NCBI GenBank assembly: GCA_965224025.1
Contig: OZ245033.1
Location: 3,552,001-3,616,000 of the forward strand
DNA length: 64,000 nt
Direction: 5' to 3'
Origin: Candidatus Multivorans sp.
GTDB taxonomy: Bacteria > Acidobacteriota > Thermoanaerobaculia > Multivoradales > Multivoraceae
The translations under genes were made by a program, and so were the position numbers. Within the stretch, counting starts at the first letter, position 1. Every line of letters begins with the position of its first letter. Below, piece after piece: positions 53,661-61,861 of this stretch. The notes beneath the pieces were generated by a model. It was not told the DNA's origin. It saw only the letters and a program-made list of their open reading frames with translations, and made no database searches.

Positions 53661-54491
53661 ATGGACGAAAGAGAGTTCGCGTACGATGTGGGCCTGTCGT
53701 TCGCCGGTGAGCAGCGCGGTTACGTCGAGAGCGTCGCTGACGCACTCCGGTCGCGGGGAATCCGGGTCTTCCTTGACAAATACGAACGAGCGGCTCTGTG
53801 GGGTAAGAACCTGTATGAACACCTAAGCGATGTGTATCAGAACCGCTGCCGCTACTGCATCCTGTTTGTGTCGGCCGACTACGCCCGGAAGGTCTGGATG
53901 AATCATGAGCGGAAGAGCGCCCAAGCCCGCGCCATTTCAGAGAAGAGCGAGTACATCCTCCCGGCAAGGTTCGACGACACAGAGGTTGATGGTCTCCTCA
54001 AGACCGTTTCCTACGTAGACCTCAGGGAGACTACTGCTGAGGAGCTCGTCGAGATCACCCTTGCGAAGATCGGGACACCGGAGCGTCGTAACTACTTGCC
54101 CCCTGTGCCCGATAGGCTCTTCGAGCTCCTGGGAATCGAGGAGGACGCCCAGGCACAGGAAGCCGCGCACTCCCAAGCATCGTCTTTCTTGCGGGCCCTA
54201 CGGCGAATGACAGCCGACGAACGTAACGCTGTACTTTGCCTGTTTCGCTTCGGGTGCGACGTAGACTTGCCTGAGAATGTCCATATCAACGCTGATCTTC
54301 TCCGCCGACACACGGGCAGATCGATAGCTACCCTTGAGCGCTTGCTTGGTGACGTCCAATCTCTCGGATTCACCTGTTCCGTCAGAAAGGCCACGGATGG
54401 CGATCACTCCGTCCATGGGACGCTCTTGGGCGAGTCCTACATGTTCGATCTGACTTGGATAGATCTACAAGCTATTCACGACTATCCGGAG
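53661..54491 (+). pseudogene. TIR-domain protein, 5' part (codons 1-277), interrupted by the IS
   Basis: YDVGLSFAGE, VFLD, FVSADY..KVWMNHE, YILPARFDD; frame continues at 57206 once the IS and one TSD are removed. Confidence 0.9.
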
Positions 54492-54509
54492 GGGGATTAT
54501 ATATTAGGC

Positions 54510-54538
54510 TTGACACGGGCGCTGATTTCCCGTAGTGT
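54510..54538 (+). promoter_or_regulatory. Putative sigma70 promoter of the transposase operon
   Basis: TTGACA (inside IRL), 17-nt spacer, TAGTGT. Confidence 0.65.
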
Positions 54539-54566
54539 CTAGGGACACTGGACGGGAGATGAAACG

Positions 54567-55553
54567 ATGAAGCACAAGGCACCCGGCAAGGCTTACCGCA
54601 AGGGACTGACGTTCGTGCAACTGGCGCGGATGTTCCCCGATGAAGCAGCCGCGCGAGACTGGTTCGAGACGTACCTTTGGCCCGATGGAGTGAAGTGGTG
54701 CCCGAACTGCGGCGGCGACAACACGCACGCATGCAAGCACAAGCAGATGCCGTACCGCTGCCGCGACTGCAAGCGGTACTTCAGCGTCAAGACCGGCACG
54801 CTCATGGCTGGTTCGCCGTTGCCTCTGTTGACGTGGCTCTACGCGATCTACCTCGAACTCACATCGCTCAAGGGCGTATCGAGCATGAAACTGCACCGTG
54901 ACCTAGGCGTCACTCAGAAGACCGCTTGGCACATGCTCCAGCGCATCCGCGAAGCGTTCGCCGCCGAAGGGCCGGAAGTCCGGTTCGACGGTCCCGCCGA
55001 AGTGGACGAGACGTACTTCGGCGGTCTGCGGAAGAACATGCCGAAGTGGAAGCGTGCGGAGCTTGAAGGTCGCGGCACGGTCGGCAAGACCGCCGTGGTG
55101 GGCATCAAGGACCGCGAGACCAAGAAGGTCGCGGCGAAGGTGGTCCGCTCCACCGACGGCGAGACCCTACAGGCGTTCGTGCGCGAGCACGTCGAACCCG
55201 GCGCGATGGTGTACAGCGACGATACCGGGGCGTACAGCGGTCTGACCGAGTACGAGCGTGGCACGGTGAAGCACTCGGTCGGCGAGTACGTGGACGGCAA
55301 GGTCCACACGAACTCGATCGAGAGCTTCTGGTCGATGCTCAAGCGGGCGCACAAGGGTGTGTTCCACAAGATCAGTCCGAAGCACCTGCAACGCTACGTC
55401 GATGAGTTCGCGGGTCGGCAGAACATCCGCGAGTACGACACGCTGGCGCAGATGGTCGCCGTCACGGAGGGACTCGCGGGCAAGCGGCTCCGCTATCGTG
55501 ACCTGATCGCCGACAACGGCCTGCCGTCGGGCGCGCGCGAGGCCGCCGCATGA
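54567..55553 (+). CDS. IS1595-family DDE transposase
   Basis: Zn ribbon CPNC..CRDC; HTH region GVSSMKL..LGVTQKTAW; EVDETY, YSDD, HTNSIESFWS, YVDEF. Confidence 0.96.
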   Translation: MKHKAPGKAYRKGLTFVQLARMFPDEAAARDWFETYLWPDGVKWCPNCGGDNTHACKHKQMPYRCRDCKRYFSVKTGTLMAGSPLPLLTWLYAIYLELTSLKGVSSMKLHRDLGVTQKTAWHMLQRIREAFAAEGPEVRFDGPAEVDETYFGGLRKNMPKWKRAELEGRGTVGKTAVVGIKDRETKKVAAKVVRSTDGETLQAFVREHVEPGAMVYSDDTGAYSGLTEYERGTVKHSVGEYVDGKVHTNSIESFWSMLKRAHKGVFHKISPKHLQRYVDEFAGRQNIREYDTLAQMVAVTEGLAGKRLRYRDLIADNGLPSGAREAAA

Positions 55554-56996
55554 CCATCCTCGGTTCGTTCAGTCTGGTTCCAAACAGCCTCTACTACGGC
55601 GACTGCCTCGAAGTCATGGGCGGTTGGCCAGCCGAGTCGGTGGATCTGATCTACCTCGATCCGCCGTTCAACTCGAAGGCGGACTACAACCAGTTGTTCG
55701 GCACCGAGAACGGCGTGCCGGCCCAAGTTCGGGCGTTCACCGACACATGGACATGGAACGACTCGGCGGCCGAGCGGTACGACCGTTTCAGCCGTGCAGT
55801 CGCGCATCCCGCGCACAAGGCGGTAGTCGGCCTGCACATGGCGCTAGGTCCATCGGGGATGCTCGCGTACCTCACCTACATGGCCGAGCGGCTCGCGGAG
55901 TGCAAGCGCCTGCTCAAGCCGACCGGCTCCATCTACCTGCACTGTGACCACACGGCGGGCGCGTACCTGAAGATGCTCATGGACGCGATCTTCGGAGCGA
56001 ACAATCGCCGAAGCGAACTCCACTGGTACTACTACAACAAGATGCACGACAGCCGGAAGAAGCTGTTTGCTGCCGCCACGGACACAATCTTCTTCTATGT
56101 CAAGGATGTGGACTCCGGTTTTTCGTTTGAACAACTTCAAGAACGCCGCGAAAAGCCCGTCAAGCAGCTTGTACGAGCCAAAGTCAACGGCCGCATGGTC
56201 AACAAGCGAGACGAAGACGGTCGGCTGATGTACCAGACCAAGACACATAGAACCATTGACAATGTGTGGCGGATACCCTGTTTGCAACCAGCATCGAGGG
56301 AGAGATTAGGCTATCCAACACAGAAGCCCCGTGCGCTGTTGGATCGCATCATCAAGGCGTCTTCTAGGGAAGGTGACTTGGTGCTTGACCCGTTCTGCGG
56401 TTGTGGCACGACGATAGACGCGGCGAATCGACTGCAACGGCAGTGGGTCGGCATCGACCTTTCACCGTTCGCCACTCGCCTTGTGCGTGACCGCAGGCTC
56501 AAGGATGCGAGTATCCAGATCTTCGGTATCCCGACAGATGTTGAAGGCGCACGGCTCCTGCTACGCAACAACCCGTTCGACTTCGAGGCGTGGATCGTTA
56601 CGTCGGTGGACGGGCTGGCGGCGAACGAGGTCCAGGTAGGCGACGGCGGCATCGACGGGCGCGGCAGGATGTTCACCGTGCCGGACGATGAAACAGGCTT
56701 GGTGCTCGCTCAGGTGAAGGGGGGGGTACACCGCATCGGCGCTGCGGGACTTCGAGGGCACGATGGGCCGCGAGAACGCCACGGCGGGCATCTTCGTCAC
56801 CTTGAAGCGCGTCACAACGTCCAGTGCCCGCGCGGCTGCCAAGGCGATGGGCGAGTACCGCGTAGGCGCGACGCGCTACCCTCGGCTCCAGTTCTGGTCC
56901 GCAGAGGAGTATCTGAGGGGCGTCCGTCCTCACCTACCCGCGATGGCCGACCCGTACACCGGCAAAGCAGTTCAGACCGACATGTTCACCGGATAG
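55550..56996 (+). pseudogene. Beta-class N6/N4 DNA methyltransferase fused to an Mrr-like nuclease; out of frame at a G8 tract (possibly phase-variable)
   Basis: YLDPPFN (motif IV), YPTQKP, VLDPFCGCGTT (motif I), FE..GDGGIDG..AQVKGG; natural C-terminus (YTASALRDF..GIFVTL..YPRLQ) lies in another frame after G8 at 56719-56726. Confidence 0.88.
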
Positions 56997-57009
56997 CAGG
57001 GAGGAAGCG

Positions 57010-57192
57010 TTGCCCAAGAAGCCGAAGCGCCACACGGAACACAAGAAGGTGTACAAAGCCGAGTACGGCGGCGCTACGCCCGCGCAGGTCACGCTTGCGC
57101 TTCTACGCTACCGTCCAAACGCACCCGAAGCCGTCACGAAGCGTTTGCCACCGCAGGTTCAAGCCGACCCCGCTATCAAGTCTAGTGTATAA
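57010..57192 (+). CDS. Small basic IS-encoded protein (60 aa)
   Basis: GGGAGG RBS before TTG; stop TAA lies inside IRR; ATPAQVTLALLR helix. Confidence 0.55.
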   Translation: MPKKPKRHTEHKKVYKAEYGGATPAQVTLALLRYRPNAPEAVTKRLPPQVQADPAIKSSV

Positions 57193-57205
57193 TCCCCATC
57201 CGGAG

Positions 57206-57340
57206 ATGATGGTCGCTCATGCAATGGTAGTGGCGGCCACCGAGAACTACTGTGAAGAACACGGAGGCGAGTTCCTCGATCGTTTAGACTTCTCCCAGCT
57301 TGCTACCGCAACGGCGACCGCAGAAGATCACGAGGTGTAG
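57206..57340 (+). pseudogene. TIR-domain protein, displaced 3' part (44 codons)
   Basis: In frame with 53661-54491 across the TSD (HDYPE/MMVAHAM...HEV*). Confidence 0.85.
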
Positions 57341-57562: not shown

Positions 57563-59707
57563 CTAGAACAGGGGTTCTTGGGTCGCCACGTCGGTCCCGT
57601 TGGTCCGTTCTCGCGCAGGGAGCCTTGAGGGGCTCGGTGCGGCCGCCAGCGCCTCTAGAGCGGCTTCGACGTCATCGCTGAGAACGTCCATTTCCTCCGA
57701 CGATGTGATCGTCGTGAGGAGTTGGCCAAAGAGCACGATCTTCCGATCGTTGCGCGAGAGGGTGAAACCCGCATCAGCCAGCCGGAGCAGCTTTCGCTCT
57801 GCTACCTTGATCGCCACTTGGCGGCTGAAACTGCTCTCGGAGGCGGCGCCAACCTTACGGCACACCGTCGCTATGTCGAGCTGAATGGGTTCTTTCGCTT
57901 GCGCCTTCGGTGTCGCCACCGACATTTCAGCCTTCAACGGGTGGGCGTTTACGACTTGGAATCCGGCACTCAAGATCGCTTCGGCCAGCGCCGCCCACCC
58001 GGCATTTCGTGAATGGTGATATGTGAACACGAGTAGACCGTCATGCCTGAGCACGCGATGAGCCTCCCGGAACACCCCTGTGAGCTTCTCTGCGAACCGG
58101 TCAGCGTCGACATCCTGGACTTCACCCTTCGCCCGTGTCGATGACACCCCCTCGACAAAGCCACGCGGCGTTAGCTGCTGCCACGCAAAGAAGAAATCAG
58201 CCAACTCAGAGTAGTGAACGTTGTCGAAAAAGGGTGGATCAGTGAGAACTAGGTCGACGCTCTCCGGGGCCAAGTCTGTAAACGCCGAATCGCCGCAGGA
58301 GAGGTACAGGGAGCGCGGCGTGTAAGCTCCGTCATGCCGCCACGGCTTTATTGCGCCAGTGAATGGCCGCGAGCACACCACCGAACGCTTCCCGTTCGTT
58401 GCGCTCTTGAGCTCAGTTGGTGCCTTGTGATACTTAGCCGCACGCAGAAGCCGGCTACGGAAAAGACTCGCGAAAGATCCCGAACTCTTCGGTGTGCCCC
58501 AGAGATTCGCCTCAATGGGAGTGCGCTCCGGCTTCAAGATGTGGTGGGCGAACATGTGTCGAACCGCGCCGGTGCCTTCGCCCTTGTATGAGGCGAACAT
58601 GTTGTTGAACTCTAGTACGCCGGAGAAGAGGGTCAAGAATGCGTCGCGTCCCTTCTCCACAGGCAGGGCGGCGATGGCCTCGTGCAATCACCCTAAGGCG
58701 AGGAGCTGCCTCACGTTGAAGAAGTCGCGCCACTCCCGGAAACCGTAAGCCATCGCCTGCCGCGTGTTGTGGCCAGTCTGCAGCGCAAGTGTCGGAAGCC
58801 TGAAGCTCTCGCGTTCAAGTTCGCGCAGCAAGAGCTGCCGGCAGGCACCAAAGGCATAGTGATCATCCGTCGTCGCTGGCAGATACTCCTTTCGACCATC
58901 CTTGGTCAGTACAAGCTTGCCATACAGACGATAGCGCGGCGGCTTACCGCCTCTCAACGAAGCCGGCCGCACAGCGAAGCTCTCACCACAACTCCGGCGG
59001 GACGCCTTCGAGCCCCGCGCGATCCCTTCCCTCGGGTCAAAACGCAGCGCACATGACGGACACGTAGCCTCCTTGTCCGTGTAGAGCCCGGTGAACCAAG
59101 AGTCGCACCTAGGGCAGAGCACCTGAACTGCAGGCTTGCGCTTCGGATAGGCGTTGCGCGCCCGCATCCACGAGGAGAACAGGTCCACCGAGTTCCTACA
59201 GACTGGGCAGGCGGCTTGCATCACCCAGAAGAAGTAGAGAACCGTCGCCGGCCGGCCGCACAAGTCACGGGTCTCGTAGAGGCGCAGAATCCGTGCACCC
59301 ACATCCCGGCTAAGTGCCCTAAACGTCTCCTCAAGTACGTCGCTCTGCAAGCTCCCCAAAGCCACTCTTACGGCTTCTACCGCCACTGGATTGATGTCGC
59401 GGCCCAGCGCCGCGAGGCCGAGCTTGTGTGCCTCTCCCAACGTGGTACCGGAACCCATGAAGGGGTCGAACACGGTAATACCGGCGTAGTCCTGCGGCTC
59501 GTGGAACGCGTGCGTGAGGTCGTCATCCTCTCCGAGAATGCAGCCTAGCGTGATTCCCCGAAAGACGGATCCGAGACGCTTGGCCCACCACTTGTGGATG
59601 TGGTAGATCGGCCGGTGCACTTCCTTGCGCCAACTCTCGCGCCTCGCCAGCGCCGACAGGAACTCAAACGGGAAATGGTCGGTCTCGATCAGGCGGCGGC
59701 CAAGCAT
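57563..59707 (-). pseudogene. DUF1156-like Zn-ribbon adenine DNA methyltransferase with an in-frame TGA
   Basis: IHKWWAKR, FDPFMGSGTT (motif I), several CxxC, TDPPFFDN (motif IV); two abutting same-frame ORFs separated only by TGA at 58688-58690. Confidence 0.88.
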
Positions 59708-59708
59708 C

Positions 59709-60461
59709 TCAGCGCGCCTCCTCATTCATCGTCACAGTCGAACCTGGCGGGCCTAGGCGCCAAGCGCGGAATCGGTGTTCCCGACCGGCATGCGGGTTCG
59801 TCACTCGATCTACGATGAGGTCGTTCGTGCGCAGGTCGAAGGCGTACGCCGCTACGAGTTCCGCAGCCTCGCTCCGAACCAACTCGCCAACTTCAACGAA
59901 CCGCTCCCCTGGCTCCTGCCCTTCCGGCAGAATCAGTGTGCGATGGTGCGCGAGACCATCCGCAAGTCGAAACGGCGTCGGGACCACATACATCTTCCGA
60001 TCGCGGATCATTAGGTCGCCGTAGGTCCCAAAGCCCCTCACGCTCTTATTCTTGTGTATGTAGTCATGGTCGGCGTTCAAGAAGTCGCCGTGAACGAAGA
60101 CCAAGTCCAGCACCGGATAGACGCTGCCGTCCGGATGCTTGGGATAGCGGCCGAACACGTAGTAGATTGCTCGACCGTTGTGGAATCCTGTCGGAACCTG
60201 GCTTTTGCTGTCGAAAGTAGCGTGTCGGCCCGGATACGCCAGCCCCTTCAGCTCGTAGCCCTCCGTGAATCGCACCAGCCGAAAGTCGGGATAGCTGTTC
60301 CGGCCGCCCTGTTCAAAGTTGAGCCCCGTTTCGCGAAGGCGCTCCTTGAACCAGTTCTGGAAGTGGAATTCCTTGTCGCTCAGACTCTCGCGCACGATCA
60401 GAGACCCACCTTCGATCGCCTTGACGCATTGCCGGAAGATGTTTGGGGCTTGCAGCGCCAT
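59709..60461 (-). CDS. Putative PD-(D/E)XK type II-like restriction endonuclease
   Basis: SYPDFRL...GYELK motif; directly upstream of the methylase gene on the same strand. Confidence 0.7.
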   Translation of the reverse strand: MALQAPNIFRQCVKAIEGGSLIVRESLSDKEFHFQNWFKERLRETGLNFEQGGRNSYPDFRLVRFTEGYELKGLAYPGRHATFDSKSQVPTGFHNGRAIYYVFGRYPKHPDGSVYPVLDLVFVHGDFLNADHDYIHKNKSVRGFGTYGDLMIRDRKMYVVPTPFRLADGLAHHRTLILPEGQEPGERFVEVGELVRSEAAELVAAYAFDLRTNDLIVDRVTNPHAGREHRFRAWRLGPPGSTVTMNEEAR

Positions 60462-60581
60462 CACCGCCTCTCAACCGGATTCGACTGTACCAAGGTCTGC
60501 GGGGGCCAGACGAGACGAGCCGACGGTTCTCCTAACTGTCCATGTCCATCATGAGGCTCCGTGCCCTATTGTGTGCCTCGT

Positions 60582-60939: not shown

Positions 60940-61275
60940 GTGAGCAGCCAGTCGCTTCAGGAAGCTAGCCGGGCTCTCCGCCGGGAACTTCCCCACATCA
61001 GGGCAGCGGTGCACCGCATCGTCCATGAGGTCTTCCCCGGCCTGCGGTTCACGAACATCTGGGTGCAGCCCGCCAGATCCTGGTACGGCGACGAGGTCGT
61101 CGACGTCTGGGCGATCTACGAGGGTGACGTTGAGGCTCAGGAACAAGCCGAGGGCCTGATCTCGTTCCGAAGAAGGGTCCGCGACCTGCTCTGGGACCAG
61201 GATCTGGAGGCAACACCCAGCATCCACATGGTCACGCAGTCCGATGCGGGAGATTGGCGCCCTGAAGGCCTCTGA
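60940..61275 (+). CDS. Hypothetical protein, probable partner/antitoxin of the downstream HEPN gene
   Basis: 111 aa alpha/beta ORF overlapping the HEPN gene start; no canonical GSX10DXD. Confidence 0.65.
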   Translation: MSSQSLQEASRALRRELPHIRAAVHRIVHEVFPGLRFTNIWVQPARSWYGDEVVDVWAIYEGDVEAQEQAEGLISFRRRVRDLLWDQDLEATPSIHMVTQSDAGDWRPEGL

Positions 61276-61725
61276 TCTTCTCGTCTCCGCCGGGCAGCAG
61301 CTCCCCTCCGGCCGCGGGCGGCCGCTGCGAACTCATCTTCGCCGTGCTGTGAGCACGGTCTACTACGCCCTCTTCCACTGTTTGGCGCAGTGCTGTGCAG
61401 ACACTCTGGTTGGGAAGACGCTCGAAGGACTCGTGCCTGGAATCTGGCCTACAGGTCGCTGTCTCACGGCCGAGCTCGTGAGGCATGCAGCCAGAAGCAC
61501 CTGGTCCGAAGCTTCCCCCGGGAGATTCAGGACTTCGCCGATCTCCTTGTTGACCTCCAGAAGGAACGCCACACGGCCGACTACGATCCGGCTCAGTTCT
61601 TCTTCAAGTCCAATGTCGAAGGCCACCTACGGAGCGCCCAAGCTACCGTCGAGCGATTCGAAAAAGCCGACATCCGAGACCGACGTGCGTTCGCGGCACA
61701 CGTCCTGTTCAAGGAACGGCCGTAG
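61244..61725 (+). pseudogene. HEPN domain protein, frameshifted
   Basis: LRRAVSTVYYALFH in one frame; AYRSLSHG..LQKERHTADYDP in another; shift at GGGAA near 61412. Confidence 0.82.
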
Positions 61726-61861
61726 CTGAACCCTCACTCAACTTCCGATAGTCATTGCCACCAACAAGGGCCGCCCGGACGCCACCCCGACACCCTCCGG
61801 TCTCCGGGAGGGCGGGTGAGCCCGACTCCGGTCCGCGCACCGCCGCGCAGCAGCGCAGGCG

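Follow-up and report, generated by a model that had tools for sequence, protein, structure and literature searches.

The stretch of DNA analysed here (the window; 64,000 nucleotides of contig OZ245033.1 of Candidatus Multivorans sp., positions 3,552,001 to 3,616,000) contains a 2706-bp IS1595 insertion sequence (IS) whose passenger, or cargo, gene encodes a DNA methylase continued in the same chain by an Mrr-like nuclease. A run of exactly eight guanines (G8, at 56719-56726), located just past the catalytic QxK motif of the nuclease, puts the rest of the gene out of frame. On balance, and with modest confidence, we regard this mobile single-chain gene, which resembles restriction-modification (R-M) systems, as a phase-variable contingency locus caught in the OFF state and perhaps decaying. 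Here A denotes the window element (copies A and A2-A4), B-E the other IS1595 families, G genomes (the host being G000), L loci and X sequencing runs. The features of the region, including inverted repeats (IRs), target-site duplications (TSDs) and a micro-open reading frame (micro-ORF), are as follows:

54492..57197, IS1595 element, 2706 bp, with 24-bp IRs and 8-bp TSD
54484..54491 (+), left TSD ATCCGGAG, identical to 57198-57205
54492..54515 (+), left IR, 24 bp, with TTGACA at its inner end; 20/24 match to the right IR
54510..54538 (+), putative transposase promoter, inferred; -35 perfect, -10 only 3/6
54567..55553 (+), IS1595-family DDE transposase with N-terminal Zn ribbon, 328 aa (PF12762, PF12760, NF033547)
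55550..56718 (+), 5' part of the cargo gene, methylase and first Mrr-like half up to QxK (PF01555)
56719..56726 (+), G8 run, out of frame, read from the sequence
56727..56996 (+), 3' part of the cargo gene, second half of the Mrr-like nuclease domain in another frame (PF04471)
57010..57192 (+), micro-ORF of 60 aa, with GGAGG ahead of a TTG start, read from the sequence
57174..57197 (-), right IR, from IR comparison
57198..57205 (+), right TSD ATCCGGAG, read from the sequence
53661..54491 (+), 5' part of the TIR-domain target gene (PF13676); homolog P0139 is 88% identical
57206..57340 (+), 3' part of the TIR target gene, last ~45 codons; aligns with the C-terminal ends of P0139 and P0140

The G8 frameshift is genuine and no assembly slip. 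Contigs of three sequencing runs from three studies, X1 (depth 120.8), X3 (4.1) and X5 (3.1), bridge G8 with no other letter and no gap; X1 is possibly the source sample, none of the X6 pieces listed covers the run, and contigs drop rare variants. The depth in X1 is 121-146 inside the element and 21-22 outside it, in line with several copies. Throughout the genome, frame changes were found at 9/287 runs of G/C6, in 3/37 called cases of G/C7 and at 33/2031 random sites, and the four shifted runs among the five G8 runs called are precisely those of the four element copies. The assembly has three contigs, and a systematic homopolymer miscall in long reads would affect all four copies equally; nevertheless, such an error is largely refuted by the three bridging runs and by the near-random rate at G/C6-7 runs, which seldom shift the frame in this genome, and we give it next to no credence.

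A first-pass annotation, made from the letters alone, had proposed that the poly-G tract gates the gene. The tract is real and out of frame, but it lies behind a complete methylase domain, so the OFF state should cost the nuclease only. The OFF frame still encodes the methylase domain, and its tailed product might methylate DNA. A G10 run restores the register of 98/120 homologs, and G7 gives a loop shorter by one residue, with the spacing of 4/120; as both registers exist among homologs, one or two slips could switch the gene on. The length of the tract sets the frame in the manner of phase variation by simple sequence repeats, G8 being out of frame and G10 corresponding to the homolog register. 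The remaining OFF frame would end after 26 codons. An internal ATG at 56763 is a possible start of a 77-aa nuclease fragment, without the first helix past the run.

The assignment of the passenger to beta-class methylases from its motifs, and of its end to Mrr-like nucleases from D..QxK, is borne out by domain matches. The gene product matches PF01555 over aa 31-310 (E 5e-50), and its first 390 codons comprise a beta-class amino-methylase and the first half of an Mrr-like domain. The motifs follow the beta-class order, with DPPF at aa 37-40, the target recognition domain (TRD) at ~aa 161-240 and FCGCG near aa 282. The piece past the run, in the +1 frame and up to 56996, matches PF04471 (Mrr_cat) at 21.0 bits (cut-off 21), and many homologs carry a precomputed Mrr_cat annotation. 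In 72 aligned homologs both Asp residues of the nuclease motif are present in 72/72, the Gln in 71/72 and the Lys in 71/72, a conservation that is partly non-independent, since the rows were chosen by likeness to the nuclease region. In an AlphaFold model of the nearest intact homolog (pLDDT 87.7), the run site falls in a predicted loop that connects the strand terminated by the catalytic Lys with the next helix; the top Foldseek matches are M.BceJIV, M.RsrI and CcrM, and the matches listed are methylases only. The nuclease domain had no match among PDB sequences (best E 0.1).

Between the TRD and its counterpart in the nearest intact homolog the identity is 17-18%, compared to 62-100% in the other 40-residue blocks, and the main difference between the cargo of families C and D is an unalignable block, also in the target-recognition region; the TRD thus appears to be exchanged among close relatives. 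Intact single-chain methylase-nuclease fusions are found in family B and in 148 homologs, and the fusion is broken in the window copy. Type IIG methylases belong to the gamma class. By inference the cargo would work like a Type IIG enzyme, yet its beta-class methylase comes first and its nuclease last, which is not the Type IIG order; in the description available for RM.BpuSI an N-terminal nuclease precedes the methylase. On a separate axis, the switch may be real and the protein still no self-protecting restriction enzyme, acting instead Mrr-like on foreign methylation, as an addiction or transposition module, or as an epigenetic methylase. Indeed, the Mrr_cat/PD-QxK domain is known in modification-dependent enzymes, according to the parts of the source consulted (PMC12707154, MspJI family), and structure searches found no solved structure joining methylase and nuclease domains. 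The model of the intact homolog, however, predicts no separate methyl-reading domain, and the occurrence of either an Mrr-type or an HNH module in sister elements, together with the swapped TRD, agrees with a nuclease that is itself non-specific and is directed to its sites by the methylase. We hold this alternative to be improbable.

Comparison of relatives indicates that the pure G run arose twice, at the same site, in separate clades. At the nuclease motif, runs of at least eight occur in only two of 47 alignments (two duplicate pairs included), namely in the window element (G8) and in an element of G023 (assembled as G11, out of frame). In a 9-row domain tree the window element groups with the intact L002 of G009 (98/99) and the G023 element (L003/L184) with the intact family B (96/99). 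Both intact sisters encode three glycines as GGC GGT GGA and the bases flanking each run follow its own sister, which argues for two origins of the pure run; the two G-run domains share 53% DNA identity. Compared to the intact sister, 77/88 aa are identical past the run and 55/63 ahead of it, and 29/48 four-fold sites differ. Conservation of the downstream half while ~60% of the four-fold sites differ shows that it remained under purifying selection and was translated for nearly all its history. The region departs at 4 of 122 conserved columns, and relatives at 2-19 (whole-region count). In long ORFs of the host, 2/1180 Gly-Gly-Gly triplets start with GGG GGG.

Searches for further cases gave little. 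A family-wide protein search found the domain in 3/57 genomes and the run in G023 only, and a pattern search of the genus matched 6/42 genomes, with only G000 and G023 being real and the other four having no transposase or methylase match. No run was present among the 11 loci of a metagenome scan, nor among the loci fetched from a phylum sample in which 27/401 genomes have the domain. When the out-of-frame tail was used as a protein query, P0011 alone was found. Locus L035 has a frameshift near the same motif, with a run of only G6, and was not counted; one viral match to the run pattern is an unrelated gene.

The G8 and G11 cases both need an identical +1 shift, as would be expected if the ribosome (+1 on GGG-G) or RNA polymerase slipped on the run, yielding mostly methylase and little full-length nuclease. 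The 4/120 intact homologs with the shorter loop expected from a +1 shift and a fixed tract length fit such recoding, and a low nuclease-to-methylase ratio would arguably be useful. We nevertheless consider it very unlikely, given that the remaining IS-borne G runs are in frame and within the methylase, that the predicted fold of the RNA past the run is no more stable than that of shuffled sequences (z -0.39) and that the intact sisters have no slippery site.

Repeat gating is a recurrent trait of the methylase-nuclease cargo class, as supported by comparison of homologous genes. Runs of G or C of at least eight are present in 6/37 IS-linked homologs and in 3/163 other distinct homologs (Fisher p 0.0015), near-duplicate loci, among them L225 with its own G10, having been dropped before the count and one non-IS row, L169, on which none of the conclusions hinges, coming from the unpublished genome G108. 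The IS-linked long runs occupy three different sites, in frame and out of frame. In synonymous shuffles of 33 in-frame IS-linked genes 0.65 long runs were expected, compared to four observed (0/300 shuffles reach four), and 152 other genes have one long run where 4.3 were expected, i.e., runs are avoided; L001, L184, L022, L064 and 11 non-IS genes were omitted from this test. The four in-frame IS-linked runs are G9-G10, and none is of length 7-8. When any repeat is considered, it is found in 17/37 IS-linked genes and 18/163 others, and repeats of 7, 8 or 11 bases between the start and the methylase body in 11/37 and 12/163, respectively. In addition, the otherwise identical C1 and C2 in the host genome have 7 and 4 repeat units, and the otherwise identical L187 and L188 in G021 have 12 and 11, with a change of the leader frame. 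Among cargo genes gated by 5' repeats for which a start was called, 16/18 are out of frame (the starts are heuristic and many genes are kin).

Two sets of homologs deserve separate mention. L225 and L222, two IS-linked methylase genes of a single genome (G556), have G9-G10 runs at the same motif and differing TRDs, and the L225 run extends into a conserved Phe codon. L040, L238, L083, L041 and L253 have no nearby IS1595 transposase and yet contain long repeats (G12 and G9 with frameshift, C20, 13 x 5 bases, C12), which suggests that gating is not confined to IS.

In the preferred reading, a beta-class amino-methylase with an exchangeable TRD would pick the site and the fused Mrr-type PD-QxK nuclease (HNH in sisters) would cut, the cargo being translationally coupled to the transposase. 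A slipped-strand locus would have evolved out of GGC GGT GGA in the loop past the catalytic lysine, so that 10 G (perhaps 7) would give the whole enzyme, and 8, 9 or 11 G would leave the methylase domain encoded and the nuclease fold halved. The lineage would have spread through the genome in the OFF (G8) state, with slow slippage under mismatch repair and with some copies decaying. The enzyme activities, the reversibility of the run, methylation by the OFF product and a benefit of OFF in a naive host are presumed here.

Several observations weigh against this reading. The phase-variable switch of the first-pass annotation is in keeping with the recurrence of repeat gating in the cargo class, but no length variant of the run was seen: it is G8 in 4/4 copies and 3/3 bridging runs, with no indel row, and two proteins of other assemblies, P0011 and P0133, share the OFF frame. 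None of the 15 of 16 cluster members listed is in frame. In X3, which comes from another study, the element occupies the same site and the run is likewise G8; this argues that OFF has been stable. The host has MutS and MutL, and G8 is below the G9 cut-off of a survey of REBASE (PMC5909438), although G7-G8 can vary in Campylobacter jejuni and Neisseria meningitidis according to that survey. Within the element the G8 frame meets no stop codon, and the tail is set by the insertion site (596, 619 and 667 aa). A Tyr invariant in 72/72 homologs is Cys in two copies and one copy has a +1 insertion, the window copy being the only one of four with a clean methylase domain. As to the enrichment, the cut-off of eight was set after the run had been seen and the loci are kin; held-out loci alone give 1/8 vs. 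2/62 (p 0.31, not significant), the held-out IS set being small as searches around G083, G471 and G473 yielded 3/81, 3/41 and 3/41 genomes. In addition, C runs in IS cargo number 1 vs. 1.3 expected, and in other genes 0 vs. 16.7; as IS cargo does not avoid C runs, relaxed selection accounts for part of the signal.

Much of this is compatible with a pseudogene, in which a Gly-rich loop of weakly selected cargo lost its interruptions by slippage and the frameshift was fixed before copying, the run being a mutational sink. G8 wherever readable, further damage in 3/4 copies, a G8 frame free of stops in the element and the lack of avoidance of C runs all agree with it, as do broken defence genes nearby and the fact that the genome also has an undamaged paralog in the four identical copies of family B. 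Decay would require, however, that three interrupting bases were lost twice at one site with the downstream half still conserved; moreover, long G runs exceed the neutral shuffle, the four in-frame ones being G9-G10 and none 7-8, and the non-triplet 5-11-base repeats of sister elements differ among copies. We see decay as possible, though less probable than a switch. If it holds, the gene is an ordinary decaying passenger of a class that is still uncharacterised.

A more far-reaching proposal is that IS1595 elements spread R-M enzymes with a mutational safety catch: the element would arrive with methylase ON and nuclease OFF, the host would be methylated first, and a later slip would arm restriction. 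Selection would then have made poly-G in the nuclease active-site loop independently in the window and G023 lineages, and slippage would replace a controller protein and allow methylation without cleavage by a single polypeptide. The strong OFF bias of the 5'-repeat-gated cargo fits this logic. We find the proposal rather doubtful. A run that removes the nuclease alone would make it testable how a mobile restriction enzyme enters an unmethylated host, a question of long standing.

The element itself is a member of the IS1595 family, and its extent as originally described (2706 bp, 24-bp IRs agreeing at 20/24, a perfect 8-bp TSD, an intact transposase) is confirmed. It has a single DDE_Tnp_IS1595 transposase (PF12762, E 1e-39; PF12760, E 3e-7; NF033547, 187.5 bits with a cut-off of 75), whose N-terminal zinc finger, expected in every IS1595 group except IS1016 (PMC8101967), is formed by CPNC at 45 and CRDC at 65, terminal IRs (GGGGATTATA..., with 20/24 positions in agreement) and an 8-bp TSD. 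Its ends are GGGGATTAT. In the ISNwi subgroup of IS1595 the ends are ggnnatTAT and there is a subgroup-specific catalytic motif. As in transporter IS (tIS), the passenger lies inside the IRs, and four full-length copies occur at different sites. The proposed coupling is present as well, the transposase stop overlapping the cargo start in ATGA at 55550-55553. The promoter TTGACA-N17-TAGTGT fared less well: both boxes are there at 54510-54538, with TTGACA falling within the left IR, but the -10 box matches at 3/6 positions only and a consensus scan of 54450-57250 returned 0 promoters. Some sister elements have TTGAC(A/T) with a better -10. The micro-ORF has no Pfam match and no Atlas match; its motif Y-x(2-3)-ATP-x-Q/E-VA is located at the 3' end of A, B, L188 and L189 and is looser in L096 and L127.

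The four copies in the genome are 99.8-100% identical with differing flanks, the transposase is 100% identical in all of them, and all terminate at the same base. Four near-identical copies with different flanks are more than chance and show that the element moves as a unit with its methylase-nuclease fusion, as the transporter hypothesis had it; a recently active IS1595 transporter is the best explanation. Perfect 8-bp TSDs flank E, each of the four B copies and, within A, the window copy and A3 but not A2 and A4. The genome search for copies and cargo suggested at the outset also revealed that all 12 IS1595 transposases of the genome adjoin a methylase homolog, i.e., those of the four A copies and eight others. 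Family B consists of four identical copies with an intact methylase-Mrr fusion, and families C (2 copies), D (1) and E (1) have methylase-HNH-type cargo, in which HNH is our assumption from the motif. The three further copies, the eight related methylase-carrying elements, the 3' micro-ORF with its ribosome-binding site and the interrupted TIR gene were absent from the first-pass annotation. That gene loses its last ~45 codons to the element, and P0139 (88% identical) continues into the sequence past the right TSD. No empty-site joint was present among the joints listed (157 others were unlisted), but the empty site could be reconstructed from protein homologs.

Copies A2 (G000:C1:909278-911983, +) and A4 (2130591-2133297, -) are in opposite orientation, separated by 1.22 Mb. 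The 8-base sequence to the left of A2 is identical to that on the right of A4 and the remaining two flanks are unmatched, a pattern that fits an inversion between the copies with a one-sided deletion, or a misassembly. C1, C2 and D (G000:C1 ~240900-245900, 1568000-1573000 and 1968000-1972600) have an extra ORF of 507 aa, peptidase-like and on the opposite strand; C1 and C2 are identical over ~5 kb save three 8-base repeat units. L184:1-3700 (G023:C1) has tandem cargo, in which the transposase is followed by the methylase-Mrr gene with G11, a 33-codon duplicate of the end of the transposase gene and a methylase-HNH gene; it looks like a captured second cargo unit. Other cargo occurs between the same IS1595 ends in L189, an ORF which we take to be C5-methylase-like from its motif, and in L186, whose product looks secreted and starts with a 6-residue repeat. 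A search of PLSDB gave 9 records, two of them near full length, at <60% identity.

The locus had been put forward as an undescribed system, which is too strong, as IS1595 passengers, IR-bounded R-M with 8-bp TSD and poly-G single-chain R-M are each in print. Each part is already known and only the combination was not found: in the literature searched, mostly open-access, without supplements and with ISfinder and REBASE outside the search, no paper came to light that describes a repeat-switched methylase-nuclease passenger in an IS1595 element. IS1595 tIS (Siguier, Gagnevin and Chandler 2009, as cited in PMC11891212, PMC5704250 and PMC8101967) share with the window element a Zn-ribbon/DDE_Tnp_IS1595 transposase, ~24-bp IRs, an 8-bp TSD and a passenger between the IRs. 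In the excerpts of these papers methyltransferase passengers are named for tIS (IS220, IS1380 family), whereas the IS1595 passengers named are regulators and lincosamide resistance (ISNha5, MTnSag1, tISCpe8), with no methylase-nuclease fusion and no repeat switch. The R-M units of Furuta et al. 2010 (PMC2853133) are similarly bounded by terminal IRs and an 8-bp TSD, and one Neisseria unit combines a Type IIG homolog with a decayed COG3677 transposase-like gene; none of these units has an intact transposase, and the sections consulted mention neither a beta-methylase/Mrr fusion nor a repeat switch.

As to the switch, the Type IIG enzyme Cj0031 of C. jejuni NCTC11168 (PMC4889913) is likewise a single chain with an intragenic poly-G and a variable TRD. 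It is ON at G9 and OFF at G10, and other strains have interrupted 4G-A-4G alleles. It differs, as far as the accessible text goes, in being likened to M.TaqI, in that both activities are predicted to switch together and in that no IS is described; the window cargo has a beta-class methylase, a C-terminal nuclease and a run past the whole methylase domain. Phasevarions of Type III mod genes (PMC5909438) also have a beta-type amino-methylase, an exchangeable TRD and repeats including G runs (modH, modJ, modL, modU). Repeats are common in these genes in the text available (PMC5909438, PMC12707154, PMC3711429), phase-variable ones being reported for 17.4% of them (662/3805; PMC5909438). In contrast to these, the window cargo has no separate Res gene, a fused nuclease, a minimal transposon as its vehicle and a run below the G9 cut-off. 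The contribution of the locus is a tract within the nuclease that on two occasions developed out of an interrupted codon triplet. Phase-variable methylases have mostly been studied on pathogen chromosomes. If minimal transposons do carry repeat-switched single-chain R-M genes with swappable target regions and nuclease modules, they would be a route to spread and diversify defence and methylation patterns and to silence them until they are of use, and a source of compact new enzymes.

Downstream of the element, a DUF1156-like methylase gene (57563-59725, -) is interrupted by a single in-frame TGA (58688-58690). It is preceded by a 251-aa ORF (59709-60464) without a Pfam match, which may be its nuclease. 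Further on, at 60940-61729 (+), lies a gene pair without Pfam or NCBIfam match, the second gene of which is split over two frames; presumably, judging by its motifs, it resembles a nucleotidyltransferase/HEPN toxin-antitoxin module. Together with the TIR gene this pair looks like a decaying defence island.

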